DNA of 64,000 nucleotides from an uncultured Oscillospiraceae bacterium (GCA_964650705.1 CAZYUJ010000008.1:6762-70761); one strand, 5' to 3'. Counted from the first letter of the stretch, positions 6,698 to 43,290 are shown. Notes: generated from the letters alone by a model not told the origin. Numbers and translations are program-made.

Positions 6698-7388
6698 TAA
6701 TTCTTATTACTCTTTGCACTTCGGTTAATCTGGCAGGTTCTGTTTCTTGTCTGGAACCGAACGAATACACAATAACTGTGTCGCCGATCTTTAGATCACT
6801 TATAGATATTTCGCCGTAATTATCAGTAATCATCGTACTATCATAAACTTTAAACACATATTCATTTCGATAGTTTACAGAGTTCATATTAAGACCGTCT
6901 ACTTGTATCCAAGAAGCGCCTAAATCCACAATTTCAGCATAGAATGCGTATCCGAACGTATCAAGAACTGTAACTACATCGGCTGTAACGGTTCCTCCGT
7001 CAATATCATCGGGACGATATTTTCCCTCTTCATCGTAAATATAAATATTCACATGGTTGCCAACCTGTATTTCATCAATATTGGCAGTTGGGGCATCGGA
7101 TCGGATGAAGCTGAATACGATCCCATTTCTCGAGTCCTGAAGCATATACTGTGTCACGCCGTTGTTCTCATCAATCGAAACGACAAGTCCTTCGAATTCG
7201 TGCCAAATGCGTGTTTCCTGAGAAACGGGTGGGGCTTCTTCATTAACATCATCTACAGAAACAACGGGCGTTTGTGCAGGTTCGTTAATATCTTCACTTA
7301 CAAGCGGTTCATCATTAGTATCAGAACAAGCGGTAAGAAGTGACAAAGTGAGCATAAAAGTTATTAAATACAAAAAAACCTTTTTCAT
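6687..7388 (-). CDS. Hypothetical lipoprotein with two beta-rich repeats
   Basis: 233 aa from the ATG at 7388 (AAAGGA upstream), with signal peptide plus lipobox LLTACSD. No recognisable catalytic motif. Confidence 0.7.
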   Translation of the reverse strand: MKKVFLYLITFMLTLSLLTACSDTNDEPLVSEDINEPAQTPVVSVDDVNEEAPPVSQETRIWHEFEGLVVSIDENNGVTQYMLQDSRNGIVFSFIRSDAPTANIDEIQVGNHVNIYIYDEEGKYRPDDIDGGTVTADVVTVLDTFGYAFYAEIVDLGASWIQVDGLNMNSVNYRNEYVFKVYDSTMITDNYGEISISDLKIGDTVIVYSFGSRQETEPARLTEVQRVIRINDD

Positions 7389-7500
7389 AATTATGTCATC
7401 CTTTCTGTGAATTTTGTTGTAGTTCAAGAACATTGGAATCACCCCTTTTATTTGATAAGCTAATTATAACACAAAAGCCATTAAATGCAAATATGAACAT

Positions 7501-7536
7501 ATTAAACAAAAGCAGCTATCCGAAACGGATAACTGC
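7501..7536 (-). terminator. Terminator after ireB
   Basis: Hairpin GCAGTTATCCG-TTT-CGGATAGCTGC (one mismatch) followed by TTTTGTTT on the minus strand. Confidence 0.65.
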
Positions 7537-7543
7537 TTTTTGA

Positions 7544-7789
7544 TCAGTTGTTCAAATAATACTTGACCATTTCCTGTAAAAGCTCGTCGCGGTCGATATG
7601 ACGGATAAGGCTTCTTGCGTTATTATAGGTCGTGATATATGTCGGGTCTTCAGAAAGAATGTAGCCGACGATCTGATTAACGGGGTTATATCCTTTTTCG
7701 AGCAGAGCTTCATATACGACCGTTAAGGTGCGCTTGATCTCATCCTTGCGGTCGGGCTTAACTGAAAAGGTCATCGTTTGGTCATGCAT
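7544..7789 (-). CDS. ireB: IreB-family regulatory phosphoprotein (UPF0297/YrzL)
   Basis: 81 aa with the conserved core [45 protein letters not shown]. Confidence 0.85.
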
Positions 7790-7908
7790 TGGCGTTCACT
7801 CCTTAATCAATCGTTATAATACATTATATCCGTTTGTTTAAGAAATTACAAGTACCCGAGATCAATTTTATTGAATACTGATAATTTTGTTTGTTGATTT
7901 TTTACAAT

Positions 7909-10296: not shown

Positions 10297-10311
10297 AACA
10301 TTACCTCCTTT

Positions 10312-11331
10312 TTAGAATTGGTCTAGGAATCTAAGGTCGTTTTCATAGAGAAGTCTTAAGTCGTTGATGCCGTATTTACGCATTACAACTCTTTCAAGAC
10401 CCAAGCCGAAAGCAAAACCGGAATATTCGTTGGGGTCGATTCCACAGTTTTCTAATACCTTGGGGTGAACCATTCCTGCGCCCAAAAGCTCAACATAGCC
10501 TTCGTTTTTGCACATCGAACAGCCCTTACCGCCACAGTTGAAGCACAAAACGTCAACTTCGGCAGAGGGTTCTGTGAACGGGAAATGATGAGGACGCAAA
10601 CGGATCTTGCAATCCTCGCCATAGAGGCGCTTCATGAGCATATCAAGTGTTCCGACAAGGTTTGCCATTGTGATACCCTTGTCAACGACCAAGCCTTCGA
10701 TCTGGTGGAACAAAGGAAGGTGTGTAGCATCAACAGCATCGGAACGGAAAACTCGTCCGGGAGAGATAACACGGATCGGGGGCTTTTTGTTCTCCATAAC
10801 GTGGATCTGAACGGAAGAAGTCTGAGTTCTCAAAAGAATGTTATCGGTGATGTAGAAGGTATCCTGTGTGTCACGGGCAGGATGATCCGCAGGGATATTG
10901 AGTGCTTCGAAGTTATAATAATCATATTCAACTTCGGGGCCTTCTGCGATATCAAAGCCCATGCCCAAGAAGATCTCTTCGATCTCGTTCATAACTGCAT
11001 TCAAGGGGTGAAGCTTTCCGACAGTCTGGAGCTTGCCGGGAAGGGTCACGTCAAGGCGTTCCTCTTTGAGTTTCTTTTCAGCAAGTGCAGACTTAAGCTC
11101 TTTTCCTCTTGCCTGAATTGCCTCTTCGATGTCAGCTCTTATCTTGTTTGCAAGCTGACCGATGATGGGGCGCTCTTCTGCAGAAAGGGTTGCCATCTGC
11201 TTTAAGATAGCTGTGAGTTCGCCTTTTTTGCCGAGGTACTTGATTCGAAGGTCATCAAGCTCCTTGGCATCTGAAATCTTTTCAAGCTCAGCTTTCGCCG
11301 CAAGCTCGATTTTTTCAAGTTGCTCTTTCAT
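10312..11331 (-). CDS. pheS: Phenylalanine--tRNA ligase alpha subunit
   Basis: 339 aa with class II aaRS motifs (HPARDTQDTFY, FRSDAVDATHLPLFHQIEG, GAGMVHP). Confidence 0.97.
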   Translation of the reverse strand: MKEQLEKIELAAKAELEKISDAKELDDLRIKYLGKKGELTAILKQMATLSAEERPIIGQLANKIRADIEEAIQARGKELKSALAEKKLKEERLDVTLPGKLQTVGKLHPLNAVMNEIEEIFLGMGFDIAEGPEVEYDYYNFEALNIPADHPARDTQDTFYITDNILLRTQTSSVQIHVMENKKPPIRVISPGRVFRSDAVDATHLPLFHQIEGLVVDKGITMANLVGTLDMLMKRLYGEDCKIRLRPHHFPFTEPSAEVDVLCFNCGGKGCSMCKNEGYVELLGAGMVHPKVLENCGIDPNEYSGFAFGLGLERVVMRKYGINDLRLLYENDLRFLDQF

Positions 11332-11376
11332 TTTAATTTTCCTTTCATATATATTGATTATTATTTACTTAACTTG

Positions 11377-11465
11377 GCTGAGGGAGTGCAAGAGCGAGGC
11401 GTGGAAGCGCGCCCGCGAACGGAGTGAGCGGAGTGCGGTTTAGTGCCGAGCGCGGCGCCGGTGGG
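11377..11465 (+). repeat. GC-rich G-skewed intergenic element, copy R2 (inside the pheST leader)
   Basis: Lies between the T-box terminator and the pheS RBS. Homologous over about 70 nt to the first half of R9 (AGCGAGGCGTGGAAGCGCG...GTGCCGAGCG). Confidence 0.7.
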
Positions 11466-11467
11466 AA

Positions 11468-11710
11468 AATAAAAAAACGCCATGCCCCAATCGGGACAAG
11501 ACGCTATCTTGCTATACCACCCATTGTCAGAAGCCAACACTTCTCCCCGTTCATAACGCTTCGGATGCGTTTTTGCCTACAACAAAAAGCTTCAGCAAAA
11601 CCACTCGTGAGTGAACTTCAGATATCCTTAGAATAATGAGCTCACAGCTTTTGCTCATCTCTCTGAAAGCTTCGGATAACTTACTCTCTCAGTCATCGTG
11701 TTTAAATATC
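11468..11710 (-). ncRNA. T-box riboswitch leader, Phe specifier (UUC), controlling pheST
   Basis: Minus strand shows stem I AGAGAG, a specifier context GAAGUUCAC (UUC = plus-strand 11613-11615) and the T-box sequence AAUGGGUGGUAUAGCAAG. A terminator GCGUCUUGUCCCGAUUGGGGCAUGGCGUUUUUUU follows. Confidence 0.85.
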
Positions 11711-11716
11711 CTATTA

Positions 11717-11745
11717 AATATAGCATATTTAGATTATAATTTCAA
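11717..11745 (-). promoter_or_regulatory. Candidate promoter of the pheST T-box leader (TTGAAA-N17-TATATT)
   Basis: On the minus strand, -35 is at 11740-11745 and -10 at 11717-11722 with a 17-nt spacer. Confidence 0.4.
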
Positions 11746-12428
11746 CTGTTTTTTGCAAAAAAGTTCAATATTTCGCACGGATGATCGATTACGTAATCCG
11801 CAGATGCTGATTCCAAGCACTCACGGGAGCGAAAACCCCAAGTGCAACCGATGCATTTGATACCCGCATTATGAGCGGTAATCACATCAACATCGGAATC
11901 TCCGATATGTATGCAGTTTTCTTTTTCCAAGCCAAAGCTGTTGATGATATTGTTCTCAACCGTCGGATCCGGCTTTTTGGGAAAGCCGTCACGAGCACCA
12001 ATGATGACATCGAACAGATCCTCACCGAAAAGCTTTGTAACGATCGCTTTTGTGAAAGCATCCGGTTTGTTAGAGTATACGCAGAGCTTCACTCCCCTGC
12101 TCTTAAGATCATTCAAGGTTTCAGTGATCCCGTCATATGCTGACGAAGTGTCAGCATAGTGATTTGAATAATGCTCTGTGAAGATAGCGTGTGACTGATG
12201 CAAAACGTCGTGGTCATTACGTAAATTCTCAGGAAGCGAGCGGTTGATGAGTAAAAGTGTGCCGTCACCGACAAAGCTCGTATATTCCTCTATTGTGTGA
12301 GTAGGCAGATCAAGCTTTTTCATAGCAAAATCGACGCTTGCGGCAAGGTCGCTGATGGTGTTTACCAATGTACCGTCAAGGTCGAATATGCAAAGCTTTA
12401 TATCAGCCAAGGAAGACGTGTTCGACAA
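11742..12428 (-). CDS. HAD-superfamily hydrolase (phosphoglycolate phosphatase-like)
   Basis: 228 aa with the DxD motif FDLDGTLVNT and a C-terminal GDSDVD motif. Overlaps the mntP 3' end by 26 nt. Confidence 0.85.
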   Translation of the reverse strand: MSNTSSLADIKLCIFDLDGTLVNTISDLAASVDFAMKKLDLPTHTIEEYTSFVGDGTLLLINRSLPENLRNDHDVLHQSHAIFTEHYSNHYADTSSAYDGITETLNDLKSRGVKLCVYSNKPDAFTKAIVTKLFGEDLFDVIIGARDGFPKKPDPTVENNIINSFGLEKENCIHIGDSDVDVITAHNAGIKCIGCTWGFRSRECLESASADYVIDHPCEILNFFAKNS

Positions 12429-12978
12429 AGATTTTCACTCCGATTGCGATGAGAATAAGACCGCCGGCGGTCTGTGCCTTGTTGTTCAAAATGTCGCCAA
12501 ACCTTTTCCCGATAAACACACCGACAAAACAGAACGCGAATGTGCAAACGGTTATGATCGAGGCGGCGCAAAGCGCAAGAACCATTGAGTCCATTACGGC
12601 GGCAAATGAAACTCCGACCGCAAGGGCGTCGATGCTCGTTGCAACGCCCTGTAACAAAAGTGCGCCGACAGTCAGCCTTGTGCCGTCAAGCTCACAGGCT
12701 TTATCCTTTTTTAAGCCGTCAAAAAGCATTTTTCCGCCGATGAATCCCAAAAGCACGAGCGCAATATAATGATCAAACCGAGTGATATATTGAGTAAAGG
12801 TGCTTCCGAGGAAATAGCCGATCGTGGGCATCAAGCCTTGGAATATTCCAAAGCAAGCAGCTATCGAAAAAGTCCATATTAAGTTAACATTCTTTTTTGT
12901 CATTCCGTTTGTGACGGATACTGCGAAAGCATCCATAGAAAGTCCGACTGAGAGAATAAAAACTTCGATTATTGACAT
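12403..12978 (-). CDS. mntP: Manganese efflux pump MntP
   Basis: 191 aa, six-TM protein with the duplicated DAFAV/DALAVG motif typical of MntP (DUF204). Confidence 0.9.
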   Translation of the reverse strand: MSIIEVFILSVGLSMDAFAVSVTNGMTKKNVNLIWTFSIAACFGIFQGLMPTIGYFLGSTFTQYITRFDHYIALVLLGFIGGKMLFDGLKKDKACELDGTRLTVGALLLQGVATSIDALAVGVSFAAVMDSMVLALCAASIITVCTFAFCFVGVFIGKRFGDILNNKAQTAGGLILIAIGVKIFVEHVFLG

Positions 12979-13007
12979 TAAATAAATGCGCCCCGATCAA
13001 TATATAA

Positions 13008-14162
<1,155 letters not shown>

Positions 14163-14516
14163 TTATTTATAAAATACTACATTCCCAAAGAACCAGCCGA
14201 CGATCTTGAAAAGCAGTTCCGTGAAGGAAAGATAGAGTCCAAAAAGTGCCATTATTATCGTAGGCACGACATATATCCACATTTTCCACTTTAACGCTTT
14301 CCAATACTCGATGGCACGGAAATATACAACTATCCAATAGATGAATAACGGGCCGGTCGCCAAAATGAAGAACTTGCTGCTGAAGCCCAAGAAAAGCGGA
14401 AGCGTTATGAGCAAAAGAGCATATAGACGCTTCATTTCTTTTTCGGGACGGTATTTTGCATCAAACGGATTGTCAGCGAATTTTGCAAGTGCGCTGAGGT
14501 CGGATTTAAGTCCCAT
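14163..14516 (-). CDS. Small hypothetical membrane protein
   Basis: 117 aa from the ATG at 14516, with about 3 TM helices. The longer ORF-track start (14630) reads through GC-rich element R3 and is unlikely. Confidence 0.6.
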   Translation of the reverse strand: MGLKSDLSALAKFADNPFDAKYRPEKEMKRLYALLLITLPLFLGFSSKFFILATGPLFIYWIVVYFRAIEYWKALKWKMWIYVVPTIIMALFGLYLSFTELLFKIVGWFFGNVVFYK

Positions 14517-14550
14517 ATAGTGTGTTCCTTTCTTATGTAAATTATCAGAT

Positions 14551-14626
14551 GACTGAGCGGCGATGTCGGACGCGATGCGCGCCCGAAGGGCGCAGGTCGC
14601 GGGCGGCGGAGCCGCGGGGTGTGGCA
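14551..14626 (+). repeat. GC-rich G-skewed intergenic element, copy R3
   Basis: Abuts the queA stop codon (14627-14629). Contains the hairpin CGCGA-TGC-GCGCCC-GAA-GGGCGC-AGG-TCGCG and the 16-mer GGCGGCGGAGCCGCGG shared with R8. Confidence 0.7.
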
Positions 14627-15670
14627 TCAAATGAAAATGCAGCTATCGCCAAAGCTGAAGAAGCGATATTTCTCCTCAACGGCTGTGCGATAAACATTCA
14701 TTGTATTCTCATATCCTGCGAAAGCGGAAACAAGCATGATGAGTGTGCTTTGAGGAAGATGGAAGTTTGTGATCAAGCCATCCAGAACCTTGAATTTATA
14801 TCCGGGATAGATAAAGATATCGGTGTTGCCTTCTGAGGCTTCGATCTTTCCTCTGAAGGTGGCGACACTTTCAAGAGTTCGGCAGGATGTCGTTCCGACC
14901 GCAATGACTCTTCCGCCGTTCGACTTTGTCTGATTTATAATGTCGGCGGTTTCCTGAGAGATCTCATAGTGCTCAGAATGCATTTTATGATCCAATACAT
15001 TATCCTCTTTAACAGGGCGGAAGGTTCCAAGACCGACGTGAAGGGTAACTCGTGCGATGTTGACTCCCCTATTCTTTAAATCCTCAAGCTGTTCTTGTGT
15101 GAAATGAAGACCTGCTGTCGGTGCGGCGGCAGAGCCCGTCTCTCGTGAATATACTGTCTGATAGCGTTCCTTATCCTCCAGCTTTTTGGTGATATAGGGA
15201 GGAAGCGGCATCTGACCGATCTCATCAAGAACGGAATAGATAGAGCCCTCACAGTTGAATTTTGCGACACGGTTTCCGTCCTCCAAGACATCAACGATCT
15301 CGGCAATAAGCTTGCCCTTGCCGAAGCTGAACTTTGTTCCGATCTTGGCTTTTTTTCCGGGACGGCACAATATCTCCCACACCATATTTTCACGCTGTTC
15401 CAAAAGCAAGAATTCGATAAAGCTGCCGTTATCTAACTTTTCACCATAGATTCTTGCGGGCAAAACACGGGAGTCGTTTATAACCAACGTGTCACCTTTT
15501 TTTAAGTAGTCGCATAGATTATAGAAGTGATCGTGCGTGATATCGCCGGTCTCGCGGTCACAAACGAGCAAACGAGAAGAGTTTCTGGGTTCGAGCGGAG
15601 TCTGGGCGATAAGCTCTTCGGGAAGATAGTAATCAAAGTCGGAAGTCTTTAAATTGTTTAAATCGAGCAT
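14627..15670 (-). CDS. queA: S-adenosylmethionine:tRNA ribosyltransferase-isomerase
   Basis: 347 aa with a QueA-type N-terminus ([19 protein letters not shown]) and full-length similarity. Confidence 0.97.
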
Positions 15671-18715: not shown

Positions 18716-18745
18716 AAAAGCTCCCCATTTCGGGGAGCTTTTTAG
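18716..18745. terminator. Bidirectional terminator between dapB and surface-protein gene P1
   Basis: AAAAGCTCCCC-ATTT-CGGGGAGCTTTTT. Confidence 0.8.
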
Positions 18746-18757
18746 TTTGGTTAGAAA

Positions 18758-19933
18758 TTATCTCTTCTTGGAAAGAGCAACAGCAGCCATAGCAACTACC
18801 ATAGGAACGATAGCGAGTGCAAGACCGGTGTCAGCGGGCTCTTCTGTTTCAGCATCATCAGTATCAACAACGGGAGCATCTTCGGTAACTTCAACCTGTG
18901 CAACTACTTCGATTGCAGTGATGGTTGTTCCGGCATCACCGGAGATGATGAAGTTGCACCAAGAATAGCCGTCAGCCAAAGCATCAGCACAGCCAGCCAA
19001 AACATCAGCACAAGCGATAGTAGCAACGCCGTCAGCAGTTGTAACTGCTACTTCGTTGTTAGCCAAATCGCTCTGGAAGCCGAGCTTTGTAACGTTGCCG
19101 TCACAAGTGATCTTGAGGGTTGCACCTTCAGTGCTGAGAGCGTCGATAAGGTTGGTCCAAGTAGCGCCGTCCTTCCAGCTGGTTGCGAACTTATCAGAAT
19201 ACCAGTCGCCAACGAGAGTGCAATCAGCAATAGCCTTGCCGTTGTTGTCGTTGTCAGAGGTGTTGGTAGTGATGGAGAAGATAGTTTCTTCAACGATAGT
19301 AACTACGGGAGTTTCTTCTACTGCGGGAGTATCATCAGCAGGAGCTTCTTCTTCAGCAGGAGCTTCGATGGGAGCATCGGGAACTACTACAGCTACGTTA
19401 ACGATGTCGTAAACGTCGTCGGGAGAAGAGTTAGAGATAACAATAAGGTTAGCTCCGCTGGTGTTGTATCCGCCGGCAGTCCATGCAGCCAAGATGTCAG
19501 CAGCGTTGTACCAAACCTTGATGCCATCATCGAGAACGCAGTCGATGTGAACGTCATAAGGCTGACCGCCTTCAGTGGTAACAGCGATATCATGATTTGC
19601 AGTACCGAGAGCGATCCACTGGCAAGTGCTGCCATCAGCTACGGGATAGTTGCCAGACCACCATGAATCGAGGATGTTGAACTTTTCCCAACCGCCGGCT
19701 GTATAAGCCAATTCGCCTGTTGCTGCGCTGCCTCTGGTGATTACAAAGTAAGCACCGGGAGTTTCCAAAGCAGCAACGAAATCAGCAGTGCTGATCTGTG
19801 TTTCAAACTGTTCCCAGTTACCGTTAGAGAAGAACATTGTATCTTCGGAAACAAGAACTTCTTCAGCGGCGATTGCAACTGTTAAGGACATTACCATAAC
19901 AAGCGCCATAATGATTGATAAAACTTTTTTCAT
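18758..19933 (-). CDS. Secreted cell-surface protein P1 (domain A + domain B, acidic Pro/Glu linkers, C-terminal PADTG-TM-KKR anchor)
   Basis: 391 aa from the ATG at 19933 (GGAGGA 7 nt upstream), with signal peptide MKKVLSIIMALVMVMSLTVAIAA. C-terminus is EEPADTGLALAIVPMVVAMAAVALSKKR. Confidence 0.85.
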   Translation of the reverse strand: MKKVLSIIMALVMVMSLTVAIAAEEVLVSEDTMFFSNGNWEQFETQISTADFVAALETPGAYFVITRGSAATGELAYTAGGWEKFNILDSWWSGNYPVADGSTCQWIALGTANHDIAVTTEGGQPYDVHIDCVLDDGIKVWYNAADILAAWTAGGYNTSGANLIVISNSSPDDVYDIVNVAVVVPDAPIEAPAEEEAPADDTPAVEETPVVTIVEETIFSITTNTSDNDNNGKAIADCTLVGDWYSDKFATSWKDGATWTNLIDALSTEGATLKITCDGNVTKLGFQSDLANNEVAVTTADGVATIACADVLAGCADALADGYSWCNFIISGDAGTTITAIEVVAQVEVTEDAPVVDTDDAETEEPADTGLALAIVPMVVAMAAVALSKKR

Positions 19934-19978
19934 TATAATTTCCTCCAATGAAATTAATTCGGTATATTACCAAAACTA

Positions 19979-20007
19979 ATTATAACTCTTGAATAATAAT
20001 TTGTCAA
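19979..20007 (-). promoter_or_regulatory. Perfect consensus sigma-A promoter of P1 (TTGACA-N17-TATAAT)
   Basis: On the minus strand, TTGACA is at 20002-20007 and TATAAT at 19979-19984 with a spacer of exactly 17 nt. Confidence 0.75.
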
Positions 20008-20078
20008 TGAATAGCTAATAATATGTCAGTTTAACAATATATAAAGAGGAAAAATTGTGCATATTCAATAAAGAAAAA

Positions 20079-20100
20079 GTCCCCCCAAAAAAGGGAGGAC
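20079..20100 (-). terminator. Terminator after P2
   Basis: Minus strand reads GTCCTCCC-TTTTTT-GGGGGGAC followed by TTTTTCTTT. Confidence 0.75.
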
Positions 20101-20121
20101 TTTTATTAGTTGTAAATCAAA

Positions 20122-20709
20122 TTACTTTCTCTTGGAAGCAACTACAACTGCAGCAGCTACTACCATAGGAACGATAGCGAGTGCCAAACCGGTGTCAGCA
20201 GGAGCTTCGTCTTCAGTAGCGGGAGCTTCATCAGTGGTGTCTTCTGCAGGAGCTTCGTCTTCAACAGGAGCTTCTTCAACAGCAGCATCAGCGCCAACGA
20301 GAGTGATGTATTCCCAAGTGATTGTGGGAACAGGCAAACCGTAGCTTGCGCCCTTGATTACGATGTTGTTAGCAACGCCCTTAGAAGAATCTTCTGCCAA
20401 GGAAGCGAGCAATACAACTTCGGTTTCGAAAACGCCATCAACAACTTCAACGGTTGTGATGTCGGATTCTCTGCTGGGGTATACGCCGTTACCAAGGTAA
20501 ACTCTGAAGTTAGCATCAGCAGTACCCTTGATCTTGATGGTTACGGTTTCGCCTTCAGCAACATCAGCGGGAAGGTCGATAGTTGCAACGTCGAGACCGC
20601 TAGTCACATGGTCAACGTAGTTAGCAGTCAAATCTGCATCAGCGAAAGCAACGCAGGTAAGAGACAATGCCAAAACGAGTGCCATTGCGATAGAAAGAAT
20701 CTTTTTCAT
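20122..20709 (-). CDS. Secreted cell-surface protein P2 (single beta-rich module, acidic linker, PADTG-TM-KRK anchor)
   Basis: 195 aa from the ATG at 20709 (GGAGGA upstream), with signal peptide MKKILSIAMALVLALSLTCVAFA. C-terminus is EAPADTGLALAIVPMVVAAAVVVASKRK. Confidence 0.85.
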   Translation of the reverse strand: MKKILSIAMALVLALSLTCVAFADADLTANYVDHVTSGLDVATIDLPADVAEGETVTIKIKGTADANFRVYLGNGVYPSRESDITTVEVVDGVFETEVVLLASLAEDSSKGVANNIVIKGASYGLPVPTITWEYITLVGADAAVEEAPVEDEAPAEDTTDEAPATEDEAPADTGLALAIVPMVVAAAVVVASKRK

Positions 20710-20759
20710 ATTCATTTCCTCCAAAAAATAATATTATTTTGTGGTTTACAACCGTTATT

Positions 20760-20788
20760 ATTATACATCTTGTATCGCGATCTGTCAA
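20760..20788 (-). promoter_or_regulatory. Perfect consensus promoter of P2 (TTGACA-N17-TATAAT)
   Basis: On the minus strand, TTGACA is at 20783-20788 and TATAAT at 20760-20765 with a 17-nt spacer. Confidence 0.75.
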
Positions 20789-20887
20789 TATCAATTTCCA
20801 AAAGTTCGATTATTATAATACAAAACGCAATATACCCTCGGCGAATCTATTCGATTTCGTGCAATAAAACGGTGTGATAAACAAAAA

Positions 20888-20908
20888 ACCTCCCAAAAAG
20901 GGAGGTTT
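20888..20908 (-). terminator. Terminator after P3
   Basis: AACCTCCC-AAAAA-GGGAGGTT with flanking A/T runs. Confidence 0.75.
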
Positions 20909-20921
20909 TAGGCTGAATCGA

Positions 20922-21692
20922 TTATCTCTTCTTAGAAAGAGCGACAGCAGCTGCAGCAACTACCATAGGAACGATAGCGAGTGCAAGACCTGTGTCAGCA
21001 GGAGTATCCTCTACTGTGGTGGTGTCCTCTACTTCGGGAGTATCTTCTACTTCGGGAGTTTCTTCTACAGCGGGTTCATCTTCAACGGGAGCTTCGTCAG
21101 CAGCAGGGCCTTCGCCGTTGTATTCAAGGTATGTGATGGTGAAGGTTACAGACTTGATAGAGTGAATGTAAGCTTCGAGGGTAGCGCCGTCAGAGCCGCC
21201 TGCTACGCCGGAGAAGTCGAAAGCACCGGGAACGTGAGTATTGCCTGCGATGCCGCCCCAAGAAGGCTCATAAGCTTCCAAGGATGCTTCGTAAACGCCT
21301 GCAACAGCAACTGTGTAATCGTCATAACCTTCAGCGGTGATAACGATATCAGAGATCTCATACTTGATGGTGGTCTTATCGCCGATCACAGCCTGTGTCT
21401 GACCGATGGTACCGTCGAGGATCTGAATACCGTACTGGTAAGAACCGCCGTCAGCAGTGGTTACGTTCTTCCAAGCATCGCCGGTATAGACAACAGTAGC
21501 AGTTTCGCCAAGGCCGATCTGAACTTCAGATCCGCCAGCGTCCTTCAAAGGTGTCCAAGCAGAGTAGCTGGGTGTATCCTGTACCCAAACCTGAGGCTGG
21601 ATGTGGATGTAAGATGTGTCAACTGCGAAAGCAGAAACGCACATTGCGCTCATGGCAACAACGATTGCCAAAAGAACAGCTAATTTTTTCAT
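20922..21692 (-). CDS. Secreted cell-surface protein P3 (distinct beta-rich module, acidic linker, PADTG-TM-KKR anchor)
   Basis: 256 aa from the ATG at 21692 (AGGAGGA upstream), with signal peptide MKKLAVLLAIVVAMSAMCVSAFA. C-terminus is DTPADTGLALAIVPMVVAAAAVALSKKR. Confidence 0.85.
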   Translation of the reverse strand: MKKLAVLLAIVVAMSAMCVSAFAVDTSYIHIQPQVWVQDTPSYSAWTPLKDAGGSEVQIGLGETATVVYTGDAWKNVTTADGGSYQYGIQILDGTIGQTQAVIGDKTTIKYEISDIVITAEGYDDYTVAVAGVYEASLEAYEPSWGGIAGNTHVPGAFDFSGVAGGSDGATLEAYIHSIKSVTFTITYLEYNGEGPAADEAPVEDEPAVEETPEVEDTPEVEDTTTVEDTPADTGLALAIVPMVVAAAAVALSKKR

Positions 21693-21737
21693 ATAAATTT
21701 TCCTCCTAATGTAGTGTAGGTAACAAAACCTGTTTAA

Positions 21738-21766
21738 ATTATATACCAATAGCAGCAAATTGTCAA
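21738..21766 (-). promoter_or_regulatory. Perfect consensus promoter of P3 (TTGACA-N17-TATAAT)
   Basis: On the minus strand, TTGACA is at 21761-21766 and TATAAT at 21738-21743 with a 17-nt spacer. Confidence 0.75.
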
Positions 21767-21829
21767 CAACGTCCTCAGTTAATACTTGTAGAATATTTTC
21801 ATAAAAAGTGTACAGTTTTAACAAAAAAC

Positions 21830-21858
21830 AAGCTCCCCTACTGTTTGTAGGAGAGCTT
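21830..21858 (-). terminator. Terminator after P4
   Basis: AAGCTCCCCTAC-TGTTTG-TAGGAGAGCTT hairpin. Confidence 0.7.
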
Positions 21859-21877
21859 ATTCAGGCAGAATAAATTA

Positions 21878-22618
21878 TTATCTCTTCTTGGAAAGAGCAA
21901 CTGCAGCCATAGCAACTACCATAGGAACGACAGCGAGTGCCAAACCGGTGTCAGCAGGAGCTTCGTCAGCAGGAGTATCCTCTACTGCGGGGGTGTCCTC
22001 TACTTCGGGAGTTTCTTCTACAGCAGGTTCATCTTCAACGGGAGCTTCTTCTTCAGCAGGAGCGCCGATGGGAGCATCGGGAACTACGATAGAGATGTTA
22101 ACGATGTCGTATGCGGTGGAAGAAGTGTTGGAGATGAGAAGGAGTTCAGAACCGCCGTTTGTGAAGCTTTCCCACTGTGCCAAGAATTCAGCAGCATCGT
22201 ACCAAACCTTTGTGCCGTCGTCGAGAACGCAGTCAAGCATTACGTCGAATTCAGGGAAGCCTTCAATAGTGTGAGCGCCGGTACCGAGACGCATGGTGTT
22301 GATGGTGTTGCCGTCAGCATCTGTACCGAGGTTGCCGGACCACCAGCTATCTGTCATGCAGAACTTTTCATACTTGCCGTCGCCTTCAGCGATCTCAGTG
22401 ACGTCAGTAGGAGCACTTCTGGTGATTACAACGTATGCGCCGGGAGTTGCCAAGTAAGCAGTGAAGTCAGCAACAGAAGTTTCAAGAGTATACTGAGACC
22501 AGTTGGATGCGCTGAAGAACAATGTATCTTCGCTCCAAATAACTTCCTCTGCAGCAACAGCAACTGTTAAGGACAATACCATAACGAGTGCCAATGCAAT
22601 AGATAAGATTTTCTTCAT
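21878..22618 (-). CDS. Secreted cell-surface protein P4 (paralog of P1 domain A, acidic linker, PADTG-TM-KKR anchor)
   Basis: 246 aa with signal peptide MKKILSIALALVMVLSLTVAVAA. Its domain aligns with the P1 N-terminal domain (SEDT.FFS..NW, TPGAY.VITR, DSWWSGN, LDCVLDDG.KVWY). C-terminus is EAPADTGLALAVVPMVVAMAAVALSKKR. Confidence 0.88.
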   Translation of the reverse strand: MKKILSIALALVMVLSLTVAVAAEEVIWSEDTLFFSASNWSQYTLETSVADFTAYLATPGAYVVITRSAPTDVTEIAEGDGKYEKFCMTDSWWSGNLGTDADGNTINTMRLGTGAHTIEGFPEFDVMLDCVLDDGTKVWYDAAEFLAQWESFTNGGSELLLISNTSSTAYDIVNISIVVPDAPIGAPAEEEAPVEDEPAVEETPEVEDTPAVEDTPADEAPADTGLALAVVPMVVAMAAVALSKKR

Positions 22619-22664: not shown

Positions 22665-22693
22665 ATTATACAACTTATATAATTATTTGTCAA
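22665..22693 (-). promoter_or_regulatory. Perfect consensus promoter of P4 (TTGACA-N17-TATAAT)
   Basis: On the minus strand, TTGACA is at 22688-22693 and TATAAT at 22665-22670 with a 17-nt spacer. Confidence 0.75.
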
Positions 22694-22814: not shown

Positions 22815-24005
22815 CTATTTAAGCGCCAACGAGATGACATCCCAATAAGCTGACTTAAGCTCGTTATCACGGGCGATGAGGAAGGGATAGTTATCTTTTT
22901 CGCTGCTGTTGAGCCAAGAGTTGCCGTCGTTGATCCCCCAGAACACAACGGAATCAATAAGCCCCATCTCAGAGTATTCCATCAGCAAAGCAAAGAGGTC
23001 TTTATATGTCTGATTATACTTCTCGATGAATTCTTTATCGTCAGGATCGCCGTTCCAACCGTTACAGTTCATATCGAGCTCAGTGACTTCGAGGATGAAA
23101 TCGGGGTTGATCTCACGCAAGCGTGAAAGCTTTTCGAGATTGCTTCTCAAAGTATCGATATTCGTATCATAGCTTATATGCATCTGAAGTCCTATGCCGT
23201 CGATCGGAACGCCGTCCTCAAGCATCTTCTTGACAGCAAGATACATGCTGATGGTCTTTTGCTCGCTCCACTCCATGTTATAATCATTTATAATGAGTCT
23301 TGCATCGGGGTCAGCGGCACGTGCGGAAATGAATGCCTGCTCGATATAGTCGTATTTATCGCCGTCTCCGTCATAGTCCCCTATTATTTCGAGCCACTTG
23401 GAGTATCTGAGTCCTCCTCCGTCGTTAATAACTTCGTTAACAACGTCCCATGTATCTATCTTCCCGGCGTACCGTGAAACGATAGTGGTAACGTGTTCAT
23501 CGATTCTTTGCATAAGCTGTTCGGCAGTTGCGGGTTCGCCGCTAACGCCCGAAGCATAGAAGAACCAATCGGGAACCTGTGAGTGCCAGATGAGTGTGTG
23601 GCCGCGAAGAGTGACGTCATATTTCTCGCCGAATTCAACATAGGCATCGACATTAGTGAAGTTGTATGTATTTTCGGAAGGATGCATAGCATCGGGTTTC
23701 GAAGCGTTCTCAAGGACAAAAGTGTTGAACTGCTTCATTATGGATTTGAAATCATCACTTGAGGTGTTGCTGATAGTCCACGGGTTGATGCAAGCACCGA
23801 CCTTGAAATAATCGGCAAAAGCCTCATATAAAGATGGAGCATTGTCATCATAGGAATACTTTGCGAGCTTCATGGACTTCAGCTCATCCTGTGTGTACTG
23901 ATAATCCTCAGTAAGGATCGGCTGTGCGCCGCAGGCAGTAAGTGAAAGCATCAAGATCACAACTGCGAGCACAAGCGCAATAGCTCTTGGCAAGTGTCTT
24001 TTCAT
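22815..24005 (-). CDS. GH10 endo-1,4-beta-xylanase lipoprotein
   Basis: 396 aa from the ATG at 24005, with lipobox LSLTACG. GH10 motifs are present: RGHTLIWHSQ, WDVVNEV (acid/base Glu) and VTELDM (nucleophile Glu). Confidence 0.9.
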   Translation of the reverse strand: MKRHLPRAIALVLAVVILMLSLTACGAQPILTEDYQYTQDELKSMKLAKYSYDDNAPSLYEAFADYFKVGACINPWTISNTSSDDFKSIMKQFNTFVLENASKPDAMHPSENTYNFTNVDAYVEFGEKYDVTLRGHTLIWHSQVPDWFFYASGVSGEPATAEQLMQRIDEHVTTIVSRYAGKIDTWDVVNEVINDGGGLRYSKWLEIIGDYDGDGDKYDYIEQAFISARAADPDARLIINDYNMEWSEQKTISMYLAVKKMLEDGVPIDGIGLQMHISYDTNIDTLRSNLEKLSRLREINPDFILEVTELDMNCNGWNGDPDDKEFIEKYNQTYKDLFALLMEYSEMGLIDSVVFWGINDGNSWLNSSEKDNYPFLIARDNELKSAYWDVISLALK

Positions 24006-24040
24006 AGTTGTTCTCCGTTCCAAATAAATGTGTATTGTTA

Positions 24041-26206
24041 TCACTCAAGTGCGAGTGAGATGACCTCCCAATAAGTGCTCTTAAGCTCATTATCACGGCC
24101 GATAAGGAAGGGATGGTTGATTCTTCCGTTGCTGTTGAGCCAGGAATGATCGTCATTGATGCCCCAGAAGACAACAGTATCTATAAGACCCTTTTCGGAA
24201 TATTCCATGAAGAGCTTGAATGCCTGAACATAGGTGTTGTTATACTGCTTCATGAAGCTGTCTGTGAGGTTGACGGTCTTCGAATCGTCACTCCAAACGA
24301 AGCAGGACATATCCATCTCGGTGATCTCGATAGTGAAATCGGGGTTATATTTTCTCAAGCCTTCGAGGATCTCTAAGTTCTTTCTGAGCTGATTGATGTC
24401 GGTGTTATAGGCAATATGCATCTGAAGACCGACACCGTCGACCTTAATACCGTCCTCAAGCATTGATTTGACAAGGTTATATACGCCCTGAGTTTTAGCG
24501 GTGCTCCATTCAAGGTTATAGTCGTTGATGATAAGACGGGCATTGGGATCTGCGGCAGCCGCTGCTTTGAATGCGGCTTCAATATAGTCATACTTGTCAC
24601 CGTCTTTATCATAGTCCCCTACTATCTGGAGCCACTTCGAATCACGCAAGGTTCCGTCGTCATTAAACACTTCGTTTACGACGTCCCACGTGTCGATCTT
24701 GCCGGCATAGCGGGAAACGATGGTCGTTACGTGCTCGTCGATTCTGTCCAAAAGCTGTTTTGCAGTTGCGGCAGTTCCGCTTGTGCCCGACTTATAGAAG
24801 AACCAATCGGGGCACTGAGAGTGCCAGATGAGAGTATGTCCGCGCAATGTCACACCGTATTTCTCACCGAAATCAACGAACTTATCGACACTTGTGAAGT
24901 TGTATTTATTCTCGCTGGGATGCATAGCATCGGGCTTGGATTCGTTTTCAAGGGTGAAGGTGTTATACTGCTTCATCATCGACTTAAAATCTTCCGAGCT
25001 TGTGCTGTTTAAGTACCATGAGTTGATGCATGCGCCGACGTTGAAGTAATCCGAGAACGCTTCATACAAGGAAGGTGCGGAAGCGTCATATGAGGTCGTT
25101 GCCTTCTTCATTGCAGAAAGCTCGGATTTTTTGTATTCGTAATCGGTTCCGTAAAGCTGAGCGGCAAGAGTCTCGATCTCTTTATCGTCATCCTTATCAT
25201 TATCATTATCATTATCGGGAGACGTGTTTTCAGGCTGATATTCGCCGCAGGTGATAGTTACCGTGTAATCGAACTTAACAGCGCCTACGCTTGAGCTGAA
25301 AGCGTAAGGGTTGAGGATGATAGCATAGGTACCGTCGGGGATATCACAGGACATTTTAACAGTTTTGGAGTCGAACTCGACAGTAGCCTCGGCTGCGCCG
25401 TCCCCTCTCGAATTGAAGTGGAGCTCGCAATGAGGCTTCTTGCCGTTCCAGCAAGTATCAATATTGGATGCGGTCAGAGTTATCTCGATGGAAGTGATGT
25501 ATTCGAGCGGAACAGCAGACTCGATCACAGAGGTGATATCGGGATAGTGAGTTCCCCAGCAGCTTTCAACATCACCTGTAACGGAGTTCGGTTTGCAATA
25601 TGTGTCCCATTCGTTATCTAAGAATTCGCTGGAGAAGCTGCCGGACACGGTATATATACCGTCAGCGGGCTTGGGAGCATCTTCTGTGAGATAATTTCCG
25701 GAAACGAAATATTCACCGCCGTCAAACTTGATCCTGTACCAGCCGTTAGCAGCCTTGCCCGTAACCTGAACCTTCTCGCCTTCTGAAAGTCCGCCGACGC
25801 GTTCGCTGTTTGCATCAGGTTTTTCACGGACGTTGACGCTCGACTTGGCGTACATGTAGACCTCACCCGAAATGTCCTCGACGGCAACGGTTGCCTCTGT
25901 GGTGGTGACAGTGGTGGCTTCGGTCGTGGTAGTGGTTGCTTCGGTAGTTGTTGCAACCGTGGTCGTAGCTTCGGTAGTGGTGGTTGTTGCCTCAGTCGTC
26001 GTGGGCTCAGTAGCAGTCACTTCGGGCGTAGTTGCGGTCGCTTCCGCGGCGACGTCATCAGAAGTAGTTACCGATTCCTCAGGGGTGGTCACCGTTGAGG
26101 GCGACTCGACCTCGTCATTAGGTTTTTGGGGAGCACAGGCGGTCAATGAAAGAATCAGAACCGCAAGCGCCATGATGAATGATAGTGTTCTTCGCAAATG
26201 ATTCAT
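24041..26206 (-). CDS. Multidomain GH10 xylanase lipoprotein (Thr-rich linker, SH3b-like domain, unknown beta domain, GH10)
   Basis: 721 aa with lipobox LSLTACA and a TTTEATTT repeat linker. The segment VNVREKPDANSERVGGLSEGEKVQVTGKAANGWYRIKF is SH3b-like. GH10 motifs WDVVNEV and ITEMDM are present. Confidence 0.9.
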   Translation of the reverse strand: MNHLRRTLSFIMALAVLILSLTACAPQKPNDEVESPSTVTTPEESVTTSDDVAAEATATTPEVTATEPTTTEATTTTTEATTTVATTTEATTTTTEATTVTTTEATVAVEDISGEVYMYAKSSVNVREKPDANSERVGGLSEGEKVQVTGKAANGWYRIKFDGGEYFVSGNYLTEDAPKPADGIYTVSGSFSSEFLDNEWDTYCKPNSVTGDVESCWGTHYPDITSVIESAVPLEYITSIEITLTASNIDTCWNGKKPHCELHFNSRGDGAAEATVEFDSKTVKMSCDIPDGTYAIILNPYAFSSSVGAVKFDYTVTITCGEYQPENTSPDNDNDNDKDDDKEIETLAAQLYGTDYEYKKSELSAMKKATTSYDASAPSLYEAFSDYFNVGACINSWYLNSTSSEDFKSMMKQYNTFTLENESKPDAMHPSENKYNFTSVDKFVDFGEKYGVTLRGHTLIWHSQCPDWFFYKSGTSGTAATAKQLLDRIDEHVTTIVSRYAGKIDTWDVVNEVFNDDGTLRDSKWLQIVGDYDKDGDKYDYIEAAFKAAAAADPNARLIINDYNLEWSTAKTQGVYNLVKSMLEDGIKVDGVGLQMHIAYNTDINQLRKNLEILEGLRKYNPDFTIEITEMDMSCFVWSDDSKTVNLTDSFMKQYNNTYVQAFKLFMEYSEKGLIDTVVFWGINDDHSWLNSNGRINHPFLIGRDNELKSTYWEVISLALE
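25882..26044 (-). repeat. Degenerate in-frame tandem repeats encoding the Thr/Glu/Ala linker of the large GH10 protein
   Basis: The plus strand shows iterated GCTTCGGT(n)GTGGTGGT units. The encoded peptide is TEPTTTEATTTTTEATTTVATTTEATTTTTEATTVTTTEA. Confidence 0.8.
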
Positions 26207-29455: not shown

Positions 29456-30040
29456 TTACAACTCGTCGAGAGTCAAGGAATATGCGGGCAGGAACTCCTC
29501 CAAAAAGATATCTGCTTCGGGTAAAGACATCTTTTTGATAGCTTCAAGCGTCTGACGTTCAGCACTCAAAAAATCGCTGTTGCCTGTTTGACGTTCTTCG
29601 ATACATTTTATAAGCGCAGATATCTTATCGGCGGCTTTAACGATAATGCGAACATCGGGATCGGATTCGTCGTCGAAAATATCTTTATAGCTGTCACGAA
29701 GATCCTCAGGAATTCCGAGCAAAAGCTTTTCTGTTGCCGCCTTTTCAACGTCCTTATAGGCTTCGCTGATTATCGGGCTGTAATACTTTACGGGAGTCGG
29801 AAGATCGCCTGTGATTATCTCCGGGACATCATGATACAGGGCGATCTTTATAGCCTTGCAGGCATCCACATTTCCGCCGAGGCGCTTATTTTTTATCTCA
29901 CAAAGGAGATGAGCGAGCATCGCGACCTCCAAGGAGTGTTCGGCAATGTTTTCGCTTCGGGTGTTTCTCATCAATCCCCAACGTGTGATGTATTTCATTC
30001 GCGAGGTAAGGGCAAAGAAGTTGTTATCATTAACGCTCAC
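29456..30040 (-). CDS. yfbR: HD-domain 5'-deoxynucleotidase (YfbR-like)
   Basis: 194 aa with close full-length resemblance to E. coli YfbR (RWGLMRNTRSENIAEHSLEVAM, YHDVPEIITGDLPTPVKY). Confidence 0.88.
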   Translation of the reverse strand: MSVNDNNFFALTSRMKYITRWGLMRNTRSENIAEHSLEVAMLAHLLCEIKNKRLGGNVDACKAIKIALYHDVPEIITGDLPTPVKYYSPIISEAYKDVEKAATEKLLLGIPEDLRDSYKDIFDDESDPDVRIIVKAADKISALIKCIEERQTGNSDFLSAERQTLEAIKKMSLPEADIFLEEFLPAYSLTLDEL

Positions 30041-30630
30041 AGCTCATCAACCTCCTTCAGATCGGGCTTATATTCTTCGTTATTAACGGCGAAATCCAAG
30101 ATCTTGCCGTAAAACTCGGAAGGATTAAGCATGATCTTGTCGGCAAGCATGTTGGCTTGTTCTTTATCAGGTGCGAAAAGCTTGAGATCCATCAAGACCA
30201 TTGTGCCGTCCGTGCAAAGGCAATTTACGGCGTAGCCGCGATTTTGCTCGGTTACGGATACCTTCACATCGCGGTCATTCTTAAGCTTTGCAAAGAATTT
30301 CAGTCCCGACGACAGTATGCGCTCTCGGAAGGATCTTGGAACGATCTTTTTAAAATCATCAGCTCCTGCTCTGGCGATCTCAGACAAGACATAATACTCC
30401 TCACCGTCACGCTCCTCTATCGTTATAGTGCCCGATTCAAGCATTTGATTCATTGCTTCCATAAAGACGAAGTAGTTGAGCACACCGTCATTGGTTGCGA
30501 TATCTGTGAGCTGATCGGGAGTTATGGGGCGATTTATCTGTTTCAGAAAATAGCAAATAAGTATCTTAACAGCATAGGTATCCGTTAAGTTAAGCATATT
30601 AGGGGTAACGTATTTATCAAAATTGGCCAT
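30037..30630 (-). CDS. DUF4364-family protein (putative wHTH regulator)
   Basis: 197 aa with an N-terminus typical of DUF4364 (ILICYFLKQINRPITPDQLTDI). Has a 4-nt overlap with the downstream HD gene. Confidence 0.6.
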   Translation of the reverse strand: MANFDKYVTPNMLNLTDTYAVKILICYFLKQINRPITPDQLTDIATNDGVLNYFVFMEAMNQMLESGTITIEERDGEEYYVLSEIARAGADDFKKIVPRSFRERILSSGLKFFAKLKNDRDVKVSVTEQNRGYAVNCLCTDGTMVLMDLKLFAPDKEQANMLADKIMLNPSEFYGKILDFAVNNEEYKPDLKEVDEL

Positions 30631-30648
30631 AAAATAATATATCCTTAA

Positions 30649-31878
30649 TTAGTAGTTACTGTTTGTGTAATCGGCAATGCCGCCGACGCGTCTGAAATCG
30701 TCGAAGAAGGTGGGATATTTGCGTGCGATGCACTCAACATTTTTAATGATGACAGGCTCTTGGCACATGGTCGTCAAAATCGCTGATGCCATTGCAATTC
30801 TATAATCGGAATAGGAGTTTATCACGCCGCCTCGAAGCTTTTTGACTCCTTCGATCTCAATAGCATTTGGCAAGGCTTTTGCCTTTCCACCCACTGAATT
30901 TATCATCTCACAAACACGATCGATATATCCGTCGAACTCACGATAATCGGTTTTTATGCCGGTTATACGGCTTTTCCCGTGAAGTGAGCAGGCATATACC
31001 GCAAGGATCGGGACGAGAGTGATTATATCTTTAGCGTCAACGTCAAAGCCTTTACAGTCACTCGACTGAGCATTTCTTATGATTTCGAAGATGACCTTTT
31101 CGGGCTGTGCGGACATAGCATCAAGTCCCGTGACACGGACGTTGCTTGTGATCGCATTTGCCACCACGAAGTTTGCGGCAAGCGAGAAATCCCCGCCTAT
31201 CTCGGTGTCAGCCATGCTGTAATGCTGTCCGCCGCGAATGATATACACGCCGTTTGCATATGCTGTCGGGATCTTTGCTTCCTTCAAGACCTCAGCGGTA
31301 AGATCGGTACCTGCACGAGAGGACTCTTTCGAAGAGACGATTATCATGCTGTCAGTCTCATTATGAGGAAGTGAGAGCAAAAGTCCCGATATATAGGAGT
31401 AGCTGTCAGCATAATGCTCGCCCGAAGGGTATTTCCCCTTAACGGTGAAGGGCATTTTTCCGTGATAATCGAATTCGATATCCTTCACGTCCAACAGCTT
31501 CATAAGGCTGTCAAAGCGCTCGTCAAGCAAAGTTTCGCTTCCGCAAAAAGTTGCATCGATCCTTTCAAAGCAGCAAACGAACGGAAGCATGAGCATTAAC
31601 GTCTCGTGAGATTCACGGCAGTCAATACGTGCCTCATGCACAGGGCGGAAAGAATAGAATATAACGCTGTTTCCAACGATCTCAAAGCTTGCGCCGACCG
31701 CTTTCAATGCGTCAAGAGTTGCACAAACGTCGTCCGAAAAGCTGACGTTTCGAACTGTTGCGGACGGTACTCGCTCAGAAGAAAGAGCAGCACAGATCAG
31801 CTTTCTGTGAGCTTCATATCCCGAGGGAACAGCGGTGACTGTGCCCAAAAGCTTTCTTGGGATTATCCTTATATCCAT
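30649..31878 (-). CDS. EPSP-synthase-fold protein with degenerate active-site motifs (AroA/MurA-like enolpyruvyl transferase family)
   Basis: 409 aa and collinear with AroA (LxGTVxxP...AAL, GGD, DYRIAMA, ARKYPTFFDDF). It lacks PGSKS, LGNAGTA and KETDR. Confidence 0.6.
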   Translation of the reverse strand: MDIRIIPRKLLGTVTAVPSGYEAHRKLICAALSSERVPSATVRNVSFSDDVCATLDALKAVGASFEIVGNSVIFYSFRPVHEARIDCRESHETLMLMLPFVCCFERIDATFCGSETLLDERFDSLMKLLDVKDIEFDYHGKMPFTVKGKYPSGEHYADSYSYISGLLLSLPHNETDSMIIVSSKESSRAGTDLTAEVLKEAKIPTAYANGVYIIRGGQHYSMADTEIGGDFSLAANFVVANAITSNVRVTGLDAMSAQPEKVIFEIIRNAQSSDCKGFDVDAKDIITLVPILAVYACSLHGKSRITGIKTDYREFDGYIDRVCEMINSVGGKAKALPNAIEIEGVKKLRGGVINSYSDYRIAMASAILTTMCQEPVIIKNVECIARKYPTFFDDFRRVGGIADYTNSNY

Positions 31879-31899
31879 ATTAACCTCCGATCATTTTGG

Positions 31900-34263: not shown

Positions 34264-34447
34264 AGTAGCTCCTCCGAGAAAATATATGATTGCATAGTAA
34301 TACTTAATAAGTATATCACATAATATCCGCAAATGAAATAGAATTCTACAAAAATATTTTATTAAAATTCTCTTAATATTTGATTTTGGTATAGCATTTT
34401 TGATAACAATAATGTATAATTGTAATATATAAGACATCGGGAAAGGG

Positions 34448-43028: not shown

Positions 43029-43091
43029 TTCATCACTCCTCCTTAACGGAGTATATGATGAAGGGACAGGCAATAGAACACATGAGGGAAA

Positions 43092-43185: not shown

Positions 43186-43290
43186 AAAAGTTCAAGATAT
43201 ATTATACATAAATAATTTAATAATAGCAAGTACCAAATGTGGAAGTTGTGTGAAAAAAGACCGACTGAATTTAACAATCGGTCTTAAACG

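Follow-up and report, generated by a model that had tools for sequence, protein, structure and literature searches.

A proposed PA[DE]TG variant of the ruminococcal NPXTG sorting signal on four predicted surface proteins beside GH10 xylanases in an uncultured Oscillospiraceae bacterium

We analyzed a 64,000-nucleotide stretch of DNA from an uncultured Oscillospiraceae bacterium of the herbivore gut (GCA_964650705.1, CAZYUJ010000008.1:6762-70761), which we call the window; all positions are counted from its first nucleotide unless another locus is named. Four consecutive minus-strand genes, P1 to P4 (18758-22618), encode predicted secreted proteins that share a C-terminal tail with the motif PADTG. 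We read this tail as a lineage-restricted sub-variant, PA[DE]TG, of the ruminococcal NPXTG sortase signal and not as a new class. Our favored explanation, which we consider probable, is that P1 to P4 are anchored to the cell wall by way of this variant signal and that their stand-alone modules, some of which resemble carbohydrate-binding modules (CBMs), work together with the glycoside hydrolase family 10 (GH10) lipoproteins that are encoded next to them. What is new is a proline at the first position of the motif followed by a fixed alanine-acidic pair: this combination is absent from the literature that we searched and is missed by annotation models. The four genes are as follows.

18758..19933, minus strand: P1, 391 amino acids (aa); signal peptide, domain A (~aa 24-170), acidic linker, domain B (~aa 216-345, CBM65-like from sequence comparison), acidic linker, EPADTG tail
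20122..20709, minus strand: P2, 195 aa; signal peptide, 120-aa beta-sandwich module, acidic linker, APADTG tail
20922..21692, minus strand: P3, 256 aa; signal peptide, ~170-aa Trp-rich orphan module, acidic linker, TPADTG tail
21878..22618, minus strand: P4, 246 aa; signal peptide, domain A (paralog of P1 domain A), acidic linker, APADTG tail

A first-pass annotation had described these as four consecutive minus-strand genes, each with a signal peptide, one or two beta-rich modules, an acidic linker, and a common tail, and the open reading frames (ORFs) at 18758-22618 confirm this. We corrected the starts of P1, P2, and P3 from the ORF ends (19948, 20724, and 21824, respectively) to the likely ATG codons, because these, like the start of P4, lie downstream of a GGAGGA ribosome-binding site and a promoter. 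All four N termini are signal peptides of the form MKK-hydrophobic-AxA, and the linkers are acidic and composed of Pro, Glu, Thr, and Ala. P1 is 100% identical to the protein P0006, and P2 is 100% identical to P0073. The relationships among the modules were also as first described: domain A of P1 is paralogous to P4, with which it shares ~51% identity across ~150-160 residues (E = 1e-41 to 5e-45), and the modules of P2, P3, and P1 domain B are each different, with no mutual relation in profile-profile comparison. Long plus-strand ORFs (19056-19412, 20874-21683, 21888-22274, and 22271-22570) are antisense to P1 to P4 and fully overlap them, reading the acidic linkers as strings rich in Ser, Gly, and Thr; these ORFs are almost certainly not genes.

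The near-invariant tail was borne out in all four proteins. Each ends in xPADTGLALA[IV]VPMVVA[AM]A[AV]V[AV][LA]SK[KR][RK]-stop, with an 18-residue hydrophobic stretch and then SKKR or SKRK at the extreme C terminus, and a six-frame scan of the window found exactly four such tails, those of P1 to P4:

18761..18841, minus strand: P1 sorting tail, EPADTGLALAIVPMVVAMAAVALSKKR
20125..20205, minus strand: P2 sorting tail, APADTGLALAIVPMVVAAAVVVASKRK (19.2 bits to NF033846, see below)
20925..21005, minus strand: P3 sorting tail, TPADTGLALAIVPMVVAAAAVALSKKR
21881..21961, minus strand: P4 sorting tail, APADTGLALAVVPMVVAMAAVALSKKR

The last 138 nucleotides of the genes are ~70% identical between copies, and within the last 27 codons, each pair of genes has 3 to 7 codon differences that are synonymous only, so the likeness of the tails is upheld by selection at the protein level. 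We also considered whether the tails might be identical due to recent gene conversion, which the synonymous differences rule out.

To describe the wider family, we built a profile hidden Markov model (HMM) from the four 30-residue tails of the window and searched it against 1.84 billion (1.84e9) cluster representatives (E ≤ 1e-3). It matched 122 representatives of 50%-identity clusters, and every match was at the extreme C terminus. Pooling all sources gave 193 distinct tails for motif statistics, and the T and G of the motif are invariant in all 193. (We refer to residues of the motif as sites, to keep them apart from the proteins: in PADTG, site P4 is Pro, site P3 is Ala, and site P2 is Asp.) Ahead of the T, the residues take one of two mutually exclusive states, x-P-x-T-G in 81 tails and P-A-x-T-G in 110. 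In the first state, site P4 is Asn in 53 tails, Ala in 19, and Ser in 9, and site P2 is free; in the second, site P3 is Ala in 110 of 110 tails and site P2 is Asp or Glu in 106 of them. Intermediate motifs such as NADTG are rare. Tails of both classes have a common body after the TG, [LIV]-A-L-A-[VI]-[VI]-P-M/A-..-A-..-SK[KR][RKH], and the helix itself is conserved, with Pro at +8 in 95 of 96 tails and Ala at +12 in 96 of 96. This tail is found on at least nine unrelated module families, and its three parts (motif, hydrophobic helix, and basic end), which the first-pass annotation had likened to processed sorting signals, behave as a modular sorting signal. Many of the homologs of protein P4 (87 hits) share only the signal peptide, the linker, and the tail with it, so the tail appears to be a portable unit. 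Tails also diverge inside a single array: a syntenic array in CAYWXA01 (locus L008, 863-1513) contains an extra 216-aa protein with a different tail, EPPATG-ISYSILPLCAAVVALAVTGSKR.

Comparison to known classes of sorting signal places the tail near NPXTG. It is not a canonical LPXTG signal and does not score as one: P1 to P4 have no match at E ≤ 10 to TIGR01167 or PF00746 (LPXTG, Gram_pos_anchor) in NCBIfam and Pfam. The sole NCBIfam match is between the tail of P2 and NF033846 (Rumino_NPXTG), at 19.2 bits versus a cutoff of 23.5; the other three tails have no hit. The tail HMM also finds NPxTG proteins whose tail body is the same as in the window (E ≤ 1e-3). Among these, P0304 (NPHTG) does pass NF033846, with 24.6 bits, and other members of the family score 17 to 22 bits. 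Another protein from this search, P0261 (373 aa), combines a cohesin domain with an SPKTG tail of the same family and probably serves a related organism as an anchoring scaffoldin: a cohesin protein with such an anchor is the architecture of the sortase-anchored ruminococcal scaffoldins of the ScaE type (PMC4081043, PMC5301203). Based on the common tail body, the match of P0304 to NF033846, and the SPKTG cohesin protein, we place PA[DE]TG inside the NPXTG family. Two ideas from the first pass do not fit these results, namely that the tail is closest to LAxTG or PPxTG variants and that it might belong to the Firmicu-CTERM class (TIGR04145, no match at E ≤ 10 for either the full P1 to P4 proteins or the isolated tails). 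Nor is the tail an isolated new class.

The resemblance to each described class is partial. As in NF033846, a motif ending in TG directly precedes a conserved hydrophobic helix and a basic end, and the tail bodies are homologous, but the window motif is P-A-D-T-G, with Pro at site P4 and Ala at site P3, instead of N-P-x-T-G. Substrates of class B sortases (NPKTG in IsdC of Bacillus anthracis and [S/P]PxTG in Clostridioides difficile) also have a residue other than Leu at site P4 and T|G as the scissile pair. However, their motifs hold Pro at site P3 and favor Asp at site P2', whereas our family has Ala at P3 and Leu or Ile, the start of the helix, at P2'. The pairing of Pro at site P3 with an adjacent class B sortase, which would mark a class B substrate, is not what we see: site P3 is always Ala in the PAxTG tails, and a class B sortase is nearby in only two related genomes. 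The LAxTG signals of class E sortases are found in Actinobacteria. They share Ala at site P3 and the x-T-G end with our motif (LAETG and PAETG are one residue apart), but site P4 is Pro in all of the PAxTG tails instead of Leu, the host here belongs to a clostridial lineage, and we saw no class E sortase at the loci examined.

The tail has a restricted distribution. A strict DNA pattern, PA[DE]TG[LIMF]ALA[IVM][IVM]P, has 20 matches in 185,579 species-representative genomes, and these lie in just 4 of them: Oscillospiraceae bacterium RGIG4672 (from roe deer rectum), two metagenome-assembled genomes (MAGs) of Candidatus Faeciplasma sp., and one uncultured Oscillospiraceae MAG. These counts are minimum values, because the PADTG-IALALVP tails of GCA_949293085.1 escape the pattern. 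A looser pattern for the TG and the body has metagenome matches in rabbit and hare gut co-assemblies and in other metagenome records. All of the homologs of protein P4 are from Oscillospiraceae MAGs or metagenomes.

We propose the following mechanism. P1 to P4 would be exported by Sec and displayed at the surface, and their C-terminal 27 residues would be a sortase-type wall sorting signal of the ruminococcal NPXTG family, with a recognition motif that, in the lineage of the window, would have shifted from [N/A/S]-P-x-T-G to P-A-[D/E]-T-G. The hydrophobic helix, with its conserved Pro, and the SKKR end would retain the exported precursor in the membrane; a membrane sortase, encoded elsewhere, would cut between the invariant Thr and Gly and would then join the protein to peptidoglycan. 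The acidic Pro/Glu/Thr linker would cross the wall and present the beta-sandwich modules, through which the cell surface may capture xylan or hemicellulose.

What the modules bind is suggested in part by their sequences and predicted structures. None of the modules of P1 to P4 passes a Pfam CBM model. However, P1 domain B is linked to a group of proteins that includes P0052 and P0057 (hhalign probability 97.2%, E = 3.8e-11, with module-only profiles; P1 has no direct Pfam hit), and P0057 matches PF18259 (CBM65_1) at 25.6 bits versus a cutoff of 25, so by this sequence link P1 domain B is CBM65-like. Domain A reaches just 38 to 76% probability against the same group. The AlphaFold2 model of P4 (predicted local distance difference test [pLDDT] score of 80.4) has a beta-sandwich at residues 25-180, and a Foldseek search of the model against the Protein Data Bank (PDB) found nothing better than E = 0.015, with CBM6, CBM36, and CBM65 far down the list. 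The module of P2 was also modeled as a beta-sandwich (pLDDT 85.6). None of its Foldseek matches reaches E ≤ 1e-3; at the top of the list are CBM86 of Roseburia Xyn10A, which binds xylan (probability 1.0, E = 9e-3, template modeling [TM] score of 0.42-0.45), CBM4 (E = 9e-3 to 3e-2), a CBM from Bacteroides Xyn10A, CBM28, and CBM6. Thus, as modeled, the P2 module weakly resembles the folds of CBM4 and CBM86. Sequence-profile searches of the PDB with three module families found no significant hits (the best was a CBM15-bearing Xyn10C, E = 0.56), and the P3 module had no PDB sequence hit. Searched alone, the P3 module has only 5 homologs, none with a Pfam domain and none outside the lineage. The first-pass annotation stated that the modules could not be named, which still holds for domain A and P3 but not for P1 domain B. 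Its proposed comparison of AlphaFold models with CBM folds yielded beta-sandwiches for P4 and P2 but no fold match at E ≤ 1e-3.

Relatives of these proteins include more familiar modules. CBM_4_9 (PF02018) is above threshold in paralogs that carry the tail, CBM65_1 is also found on the same tail, and in other genomes a module of the P2 type and domain A are joined in a single protein (P0013, P0015, and P0017). The window modules are comparable to CBM65 (known from Cel5A of Eubacterium cellulosolvens), CBM4/9/22, and CBM86 in being beta-sandwich modules, with P1 domain B linked to a PF18259-positive group; they differ in the weakness of their matches to Pfam and to known folds, as given above. 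As a system, the array is reminiscent of the ScaE scaffoldin and of stand-alone CBM surface proteins of gut Firmicutes, in that non-catalytic modules displayed on the wall would serve polysaccharide degradation (PMC4081043). Unlike ScaE, P1 to P4 have no cohesin or dockerin and are single- or double-module proteins beside lipoprotein GH10 enzymes.

Those enzymes, which the first-pass annotation had placed directly next to the array, score 287 and 278 bits as GH10, and an L-T-A-C lipobox can be read from the translation of each:

22815..24005, minus strand: GH10 xylanase lipoprotein (neighbor ORF given as 22815-24044); lipobox LTAC; conserved neighbor of the array
24041..26206, minus strand: GH10 xylanase lipoprotein; lipobox LTAC; Thr-rich linker and SH3_3 domain

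The linker of the second of these is long and rich in Thr, Glu, and Ala, and besides the SH3_3 domain, this protein has an unassigned region of ~160 aa before the catalytic domain. The arrangement DUF3810-GH10(-GH10)-[3 to 6 tail proteins] is found again in RGIG4672 (locus L003), in CAYWXA01, and in GCA_949293085.1 (L031), where the domain A protein is only 43% identical and yet the synteny with GH10 is kept. Because this position beside lipoprotein xylanases is conserved, we suggest that the modules capture xylan or hemicellulose, and the surface glycan-binding role that had been proposed for the array is plausible.

We also considered whether P1 to P4 might be adhesins or structural wall proteins that have nothing to do with glycan capture, with GH10 in the neighborhood by coincidence. 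Neither domain A nor P3 is assigned to a CBM, the locus includes no sugar ATP-binding cassette transporter and no regulator, and other tail proteins are found at unrelated loci (beside rpsI or in a cps cluster), all of which would fit. However, this would leave unexplained why the adjacency to GH10 is kept at such distances, why bona fide CBM_4_9 and CBM65_1 domains occur on the same tail in relatives, and why P1 domain B is linked to CBM65. We think that this explanation is unlikely.

Another possibility is that the tail is a plain C-terminal transmembrane anchor that is never cleaved, so that the proteins stay tethered to the membrane and the T-G is conserved for some other reason. This would be consistent with the lack of a curated sorting-signal model that the tails pass, with the lack of a sortase in the window (see below), and with the unusual conservation of the helix. 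But an uncleaved anchor does not account for an invariant extracytoplasmic T-G that follows a constrained P-A-[DE] or N-P-x in all of the pooled tails, next to low-complexity linkers that are otherwise free, or for the continuity with members of NF033846 and with the cohesin scaffoldin. We consider it distinctly unlikely and, as above, expect cleavage by a sortase.

Which sortase might this be? The first-pass annotation had no sortase in view, and we found none in the 64-kb window, either with a scan for TLxTC-type motifs or with a Pfam scan of the ~44 of the 69 ORFs of 150 aa or more that we took as genes. (The ORFs outside the Pfam scan are mostly overlapping antisense ORFs, and 29456-34800 was covered by way of the Pfam annotation of orthologs at locus L001.) In RGIG4672 (locus L005), three genes with PAETG tails are flanked by rpsI on one side and, on the other, by the genes for an FctA/Spy0128-like pilin (tail TPVTGD) and a class B sortase (TIGR03064, 180.5 bits versus a cutoff of 153.75), the latter 1.4 kb downstream of the three genes. 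The class E sortase model gives this sortase 16.9 bits versus a cutoff of 160. In Candidatus Faeciplasma (L013), an ortholog of the sortase (63% identity) is 6 kb from a PAETG gene; the PAETG gene comes before a group made up of a SipW-like peptidase, TasA/camelysin-like proteins, a pilin whose tail is SPLTGD, and this sortase. A third genome (L014) has the same pilus-like cluster without a tail gene. Across these genomes, the cluster adjoins rplM-rpsI (L005, 4958-6932; L013, 2528-8944; L014, 2093-8527) and contains a SipW-like signal peptidase, three TasA/camelysin (Peptidase_M73)-like proteins, 440-aa and 162-aa proteins of unknown function, an FctA-type isopeptide pilin with a [ST]P[LV]TGD tail, and the class B sortase.

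At first sight this sortase would be the obvious partner of the tails. We did not accept it as such, as its more distant relatives (42-47% identity) are also all in pilus-like clusters, with pilins that carry tails of the xxxTGD type. We did not find a sortase beside the NPKTG protein P0086, which is in a cps/LytR cluster, or at the locus of P0019, which is a syntenic GH10 locus. (The capsule or wall-polymer cluster around P0086, at 7446-14907 of locus L029, encodes CpsB, a tyrosine-kinase-like ATPase, and LytR_cpsA_psr, and P0086 is near a collagen/BclA_C protein.) A class B enzyme is nevertheless our leading candidate for the PA[DE]TG tails, because class B sortases take NPKTG and [S/P]PxTG motifs (PMC11987632, PMC4155245) and because the single class B sortase of C. 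difficile is a housekeeping enzyme that serves diverse surface proteins (PMC4155245, PMC11987632).

PAETG and NPKTG tails occur together on one Candidatus Faeciplasma contig (L013), which implies either one enzyme that accepts both or two enzymes. If there are two, PA[DE]TG might be read by a separate sortase paralog that has a specificity of its own, or else by some processing enzyme that is not a sortase, distinct from the enzyme for NPxTG in the same cells. The tighter constraint on PAxTG (the fixed Ala at site P3 and the acidic site P2, versus a free P2 in NPxTG), the presence of both motifs in one genome, and the pilin-dedicated appearance of the nearby class B sortase could be cited for this, but it is very unlikely given that the motif classes share the tail body after the T-G, that intermediate motifs (NADTG, APxTG, and SPxTG) exist, which argues for drift under one enzyme, and that a second enzyme was seen in none of the loci we examined. 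We give equally little credence to its extension, in which PA[DE]TG would be a separate sorting code that runs parallel to the NPxTG system, with its own enzyme, and sends highly expressed glycan-binding proteins to a distinct destination (they might be attached to another acceptor in the wall, for instance, or released).

Several observations weigh against our preferred explanation, that P1 to P4 are anchored by a variant NPXTG signal and act with the GH10 lipoproteins. First, the tails of the window do not reach the cutoff of any curated sorting-signal model. Second, to our knowledge, Pro at site P4 instead of site P3 is unprecedented among characterized sortase motifs. Our literature search found no mention of PAETG, PADTG, or PAXTG, and a search on NF033846 or NPXTG-anchored proteins found nothing relevant. 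Third, neither the motif scan nor the Pfam scan found a sortase in the window, and the sole sortase seen near tail genes belongs to a family that is always in pilus-like clusters (with an S26 peptidase, FctA pilins, and Cna_B). That enzyme may be specific to pilins, because the adjacent pilins carry different, xPxTGD-type tails. Finally, no fold match of P4 or P2 to a CBM is as strong as E = 1e-3 or reaches a TM score of 0.5, and neither PDB profile searches nor the homolog search assigned domain A or P3 to a family.

Each gene of the array is predicted to be an independent and strongly expressed transcription unit, because each has a perfect promoter, a GGAGGA site, and a strong terminator of its own:

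19979..20007, minus strand: P1 promoter, perfect TTGACA-N17-TATAAT
20760..20788, minus strand: P2 promoter, perfect TTGACA-N17-TATAAT
21738..21766, minus strand: P3 promoter, perfect TTGACA-N17-TATAAT
22665..22693, minus strand: P4 promoter, perfect TTGACA-N17-TATAAT
18716..18742, minus strand: P1 terminator, hairpin and T-run; bidirectional, also follows dapB
20075..20104, minus strand: P2 terminator, hairpin and T-run
20885..20909, minus strand: P3 terminator, hairpin and T-run
21826..21862, minus strand: P4 terminator, hairpin and T-run

These four promoters match the sigma-70 consensus at 12 of 12 positions and are the only such sites in the window, where 0 would be expected by chance. They are kept upstream of the orthologs at five other loci (L001, L003, L006, L011, and L012).

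Motif catalogues and annotation models (LPXTG, NPXTG, LAxTG, and [SP]PxTG) miss these proteins entirely, and the sources label them as hypothetical; the surface proteome of one Oscillospiraceae lineage of herbivore guts is therefore under-annotated. With Pro at site P4 and a fixed Ala-acidic pair, the motif lends itself to testing how sites P4 to P2 are read by sortases, and PA[DE]TG might be of use in sortase ligation as an orthogonal tag. That the pairing between stand-alone, CBM-like wall proteins and lipoprotein GH10 enzymes is conserved points to a simple arrangement for xylan capture in a Gram-positive cell, which is directly testable.

The rest of the window is mostly housekeeping: it includes pheST, tgt, queA, asd-dapA-dapB, aroA, pcrA, pgk-tpi-gpmI, pfk, a PASTA kinase, and obg, among others. 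ORFs at 6687-7442, 14163-14630, and 42450-43277 (251, 155, and 275 aa) have no Pfam match. At 53231-57151, an MFS_2 sugar transporter is beside a divergent GH2 glycosidase, which makes up a second small unit for glycan use that is unrelated to the array.

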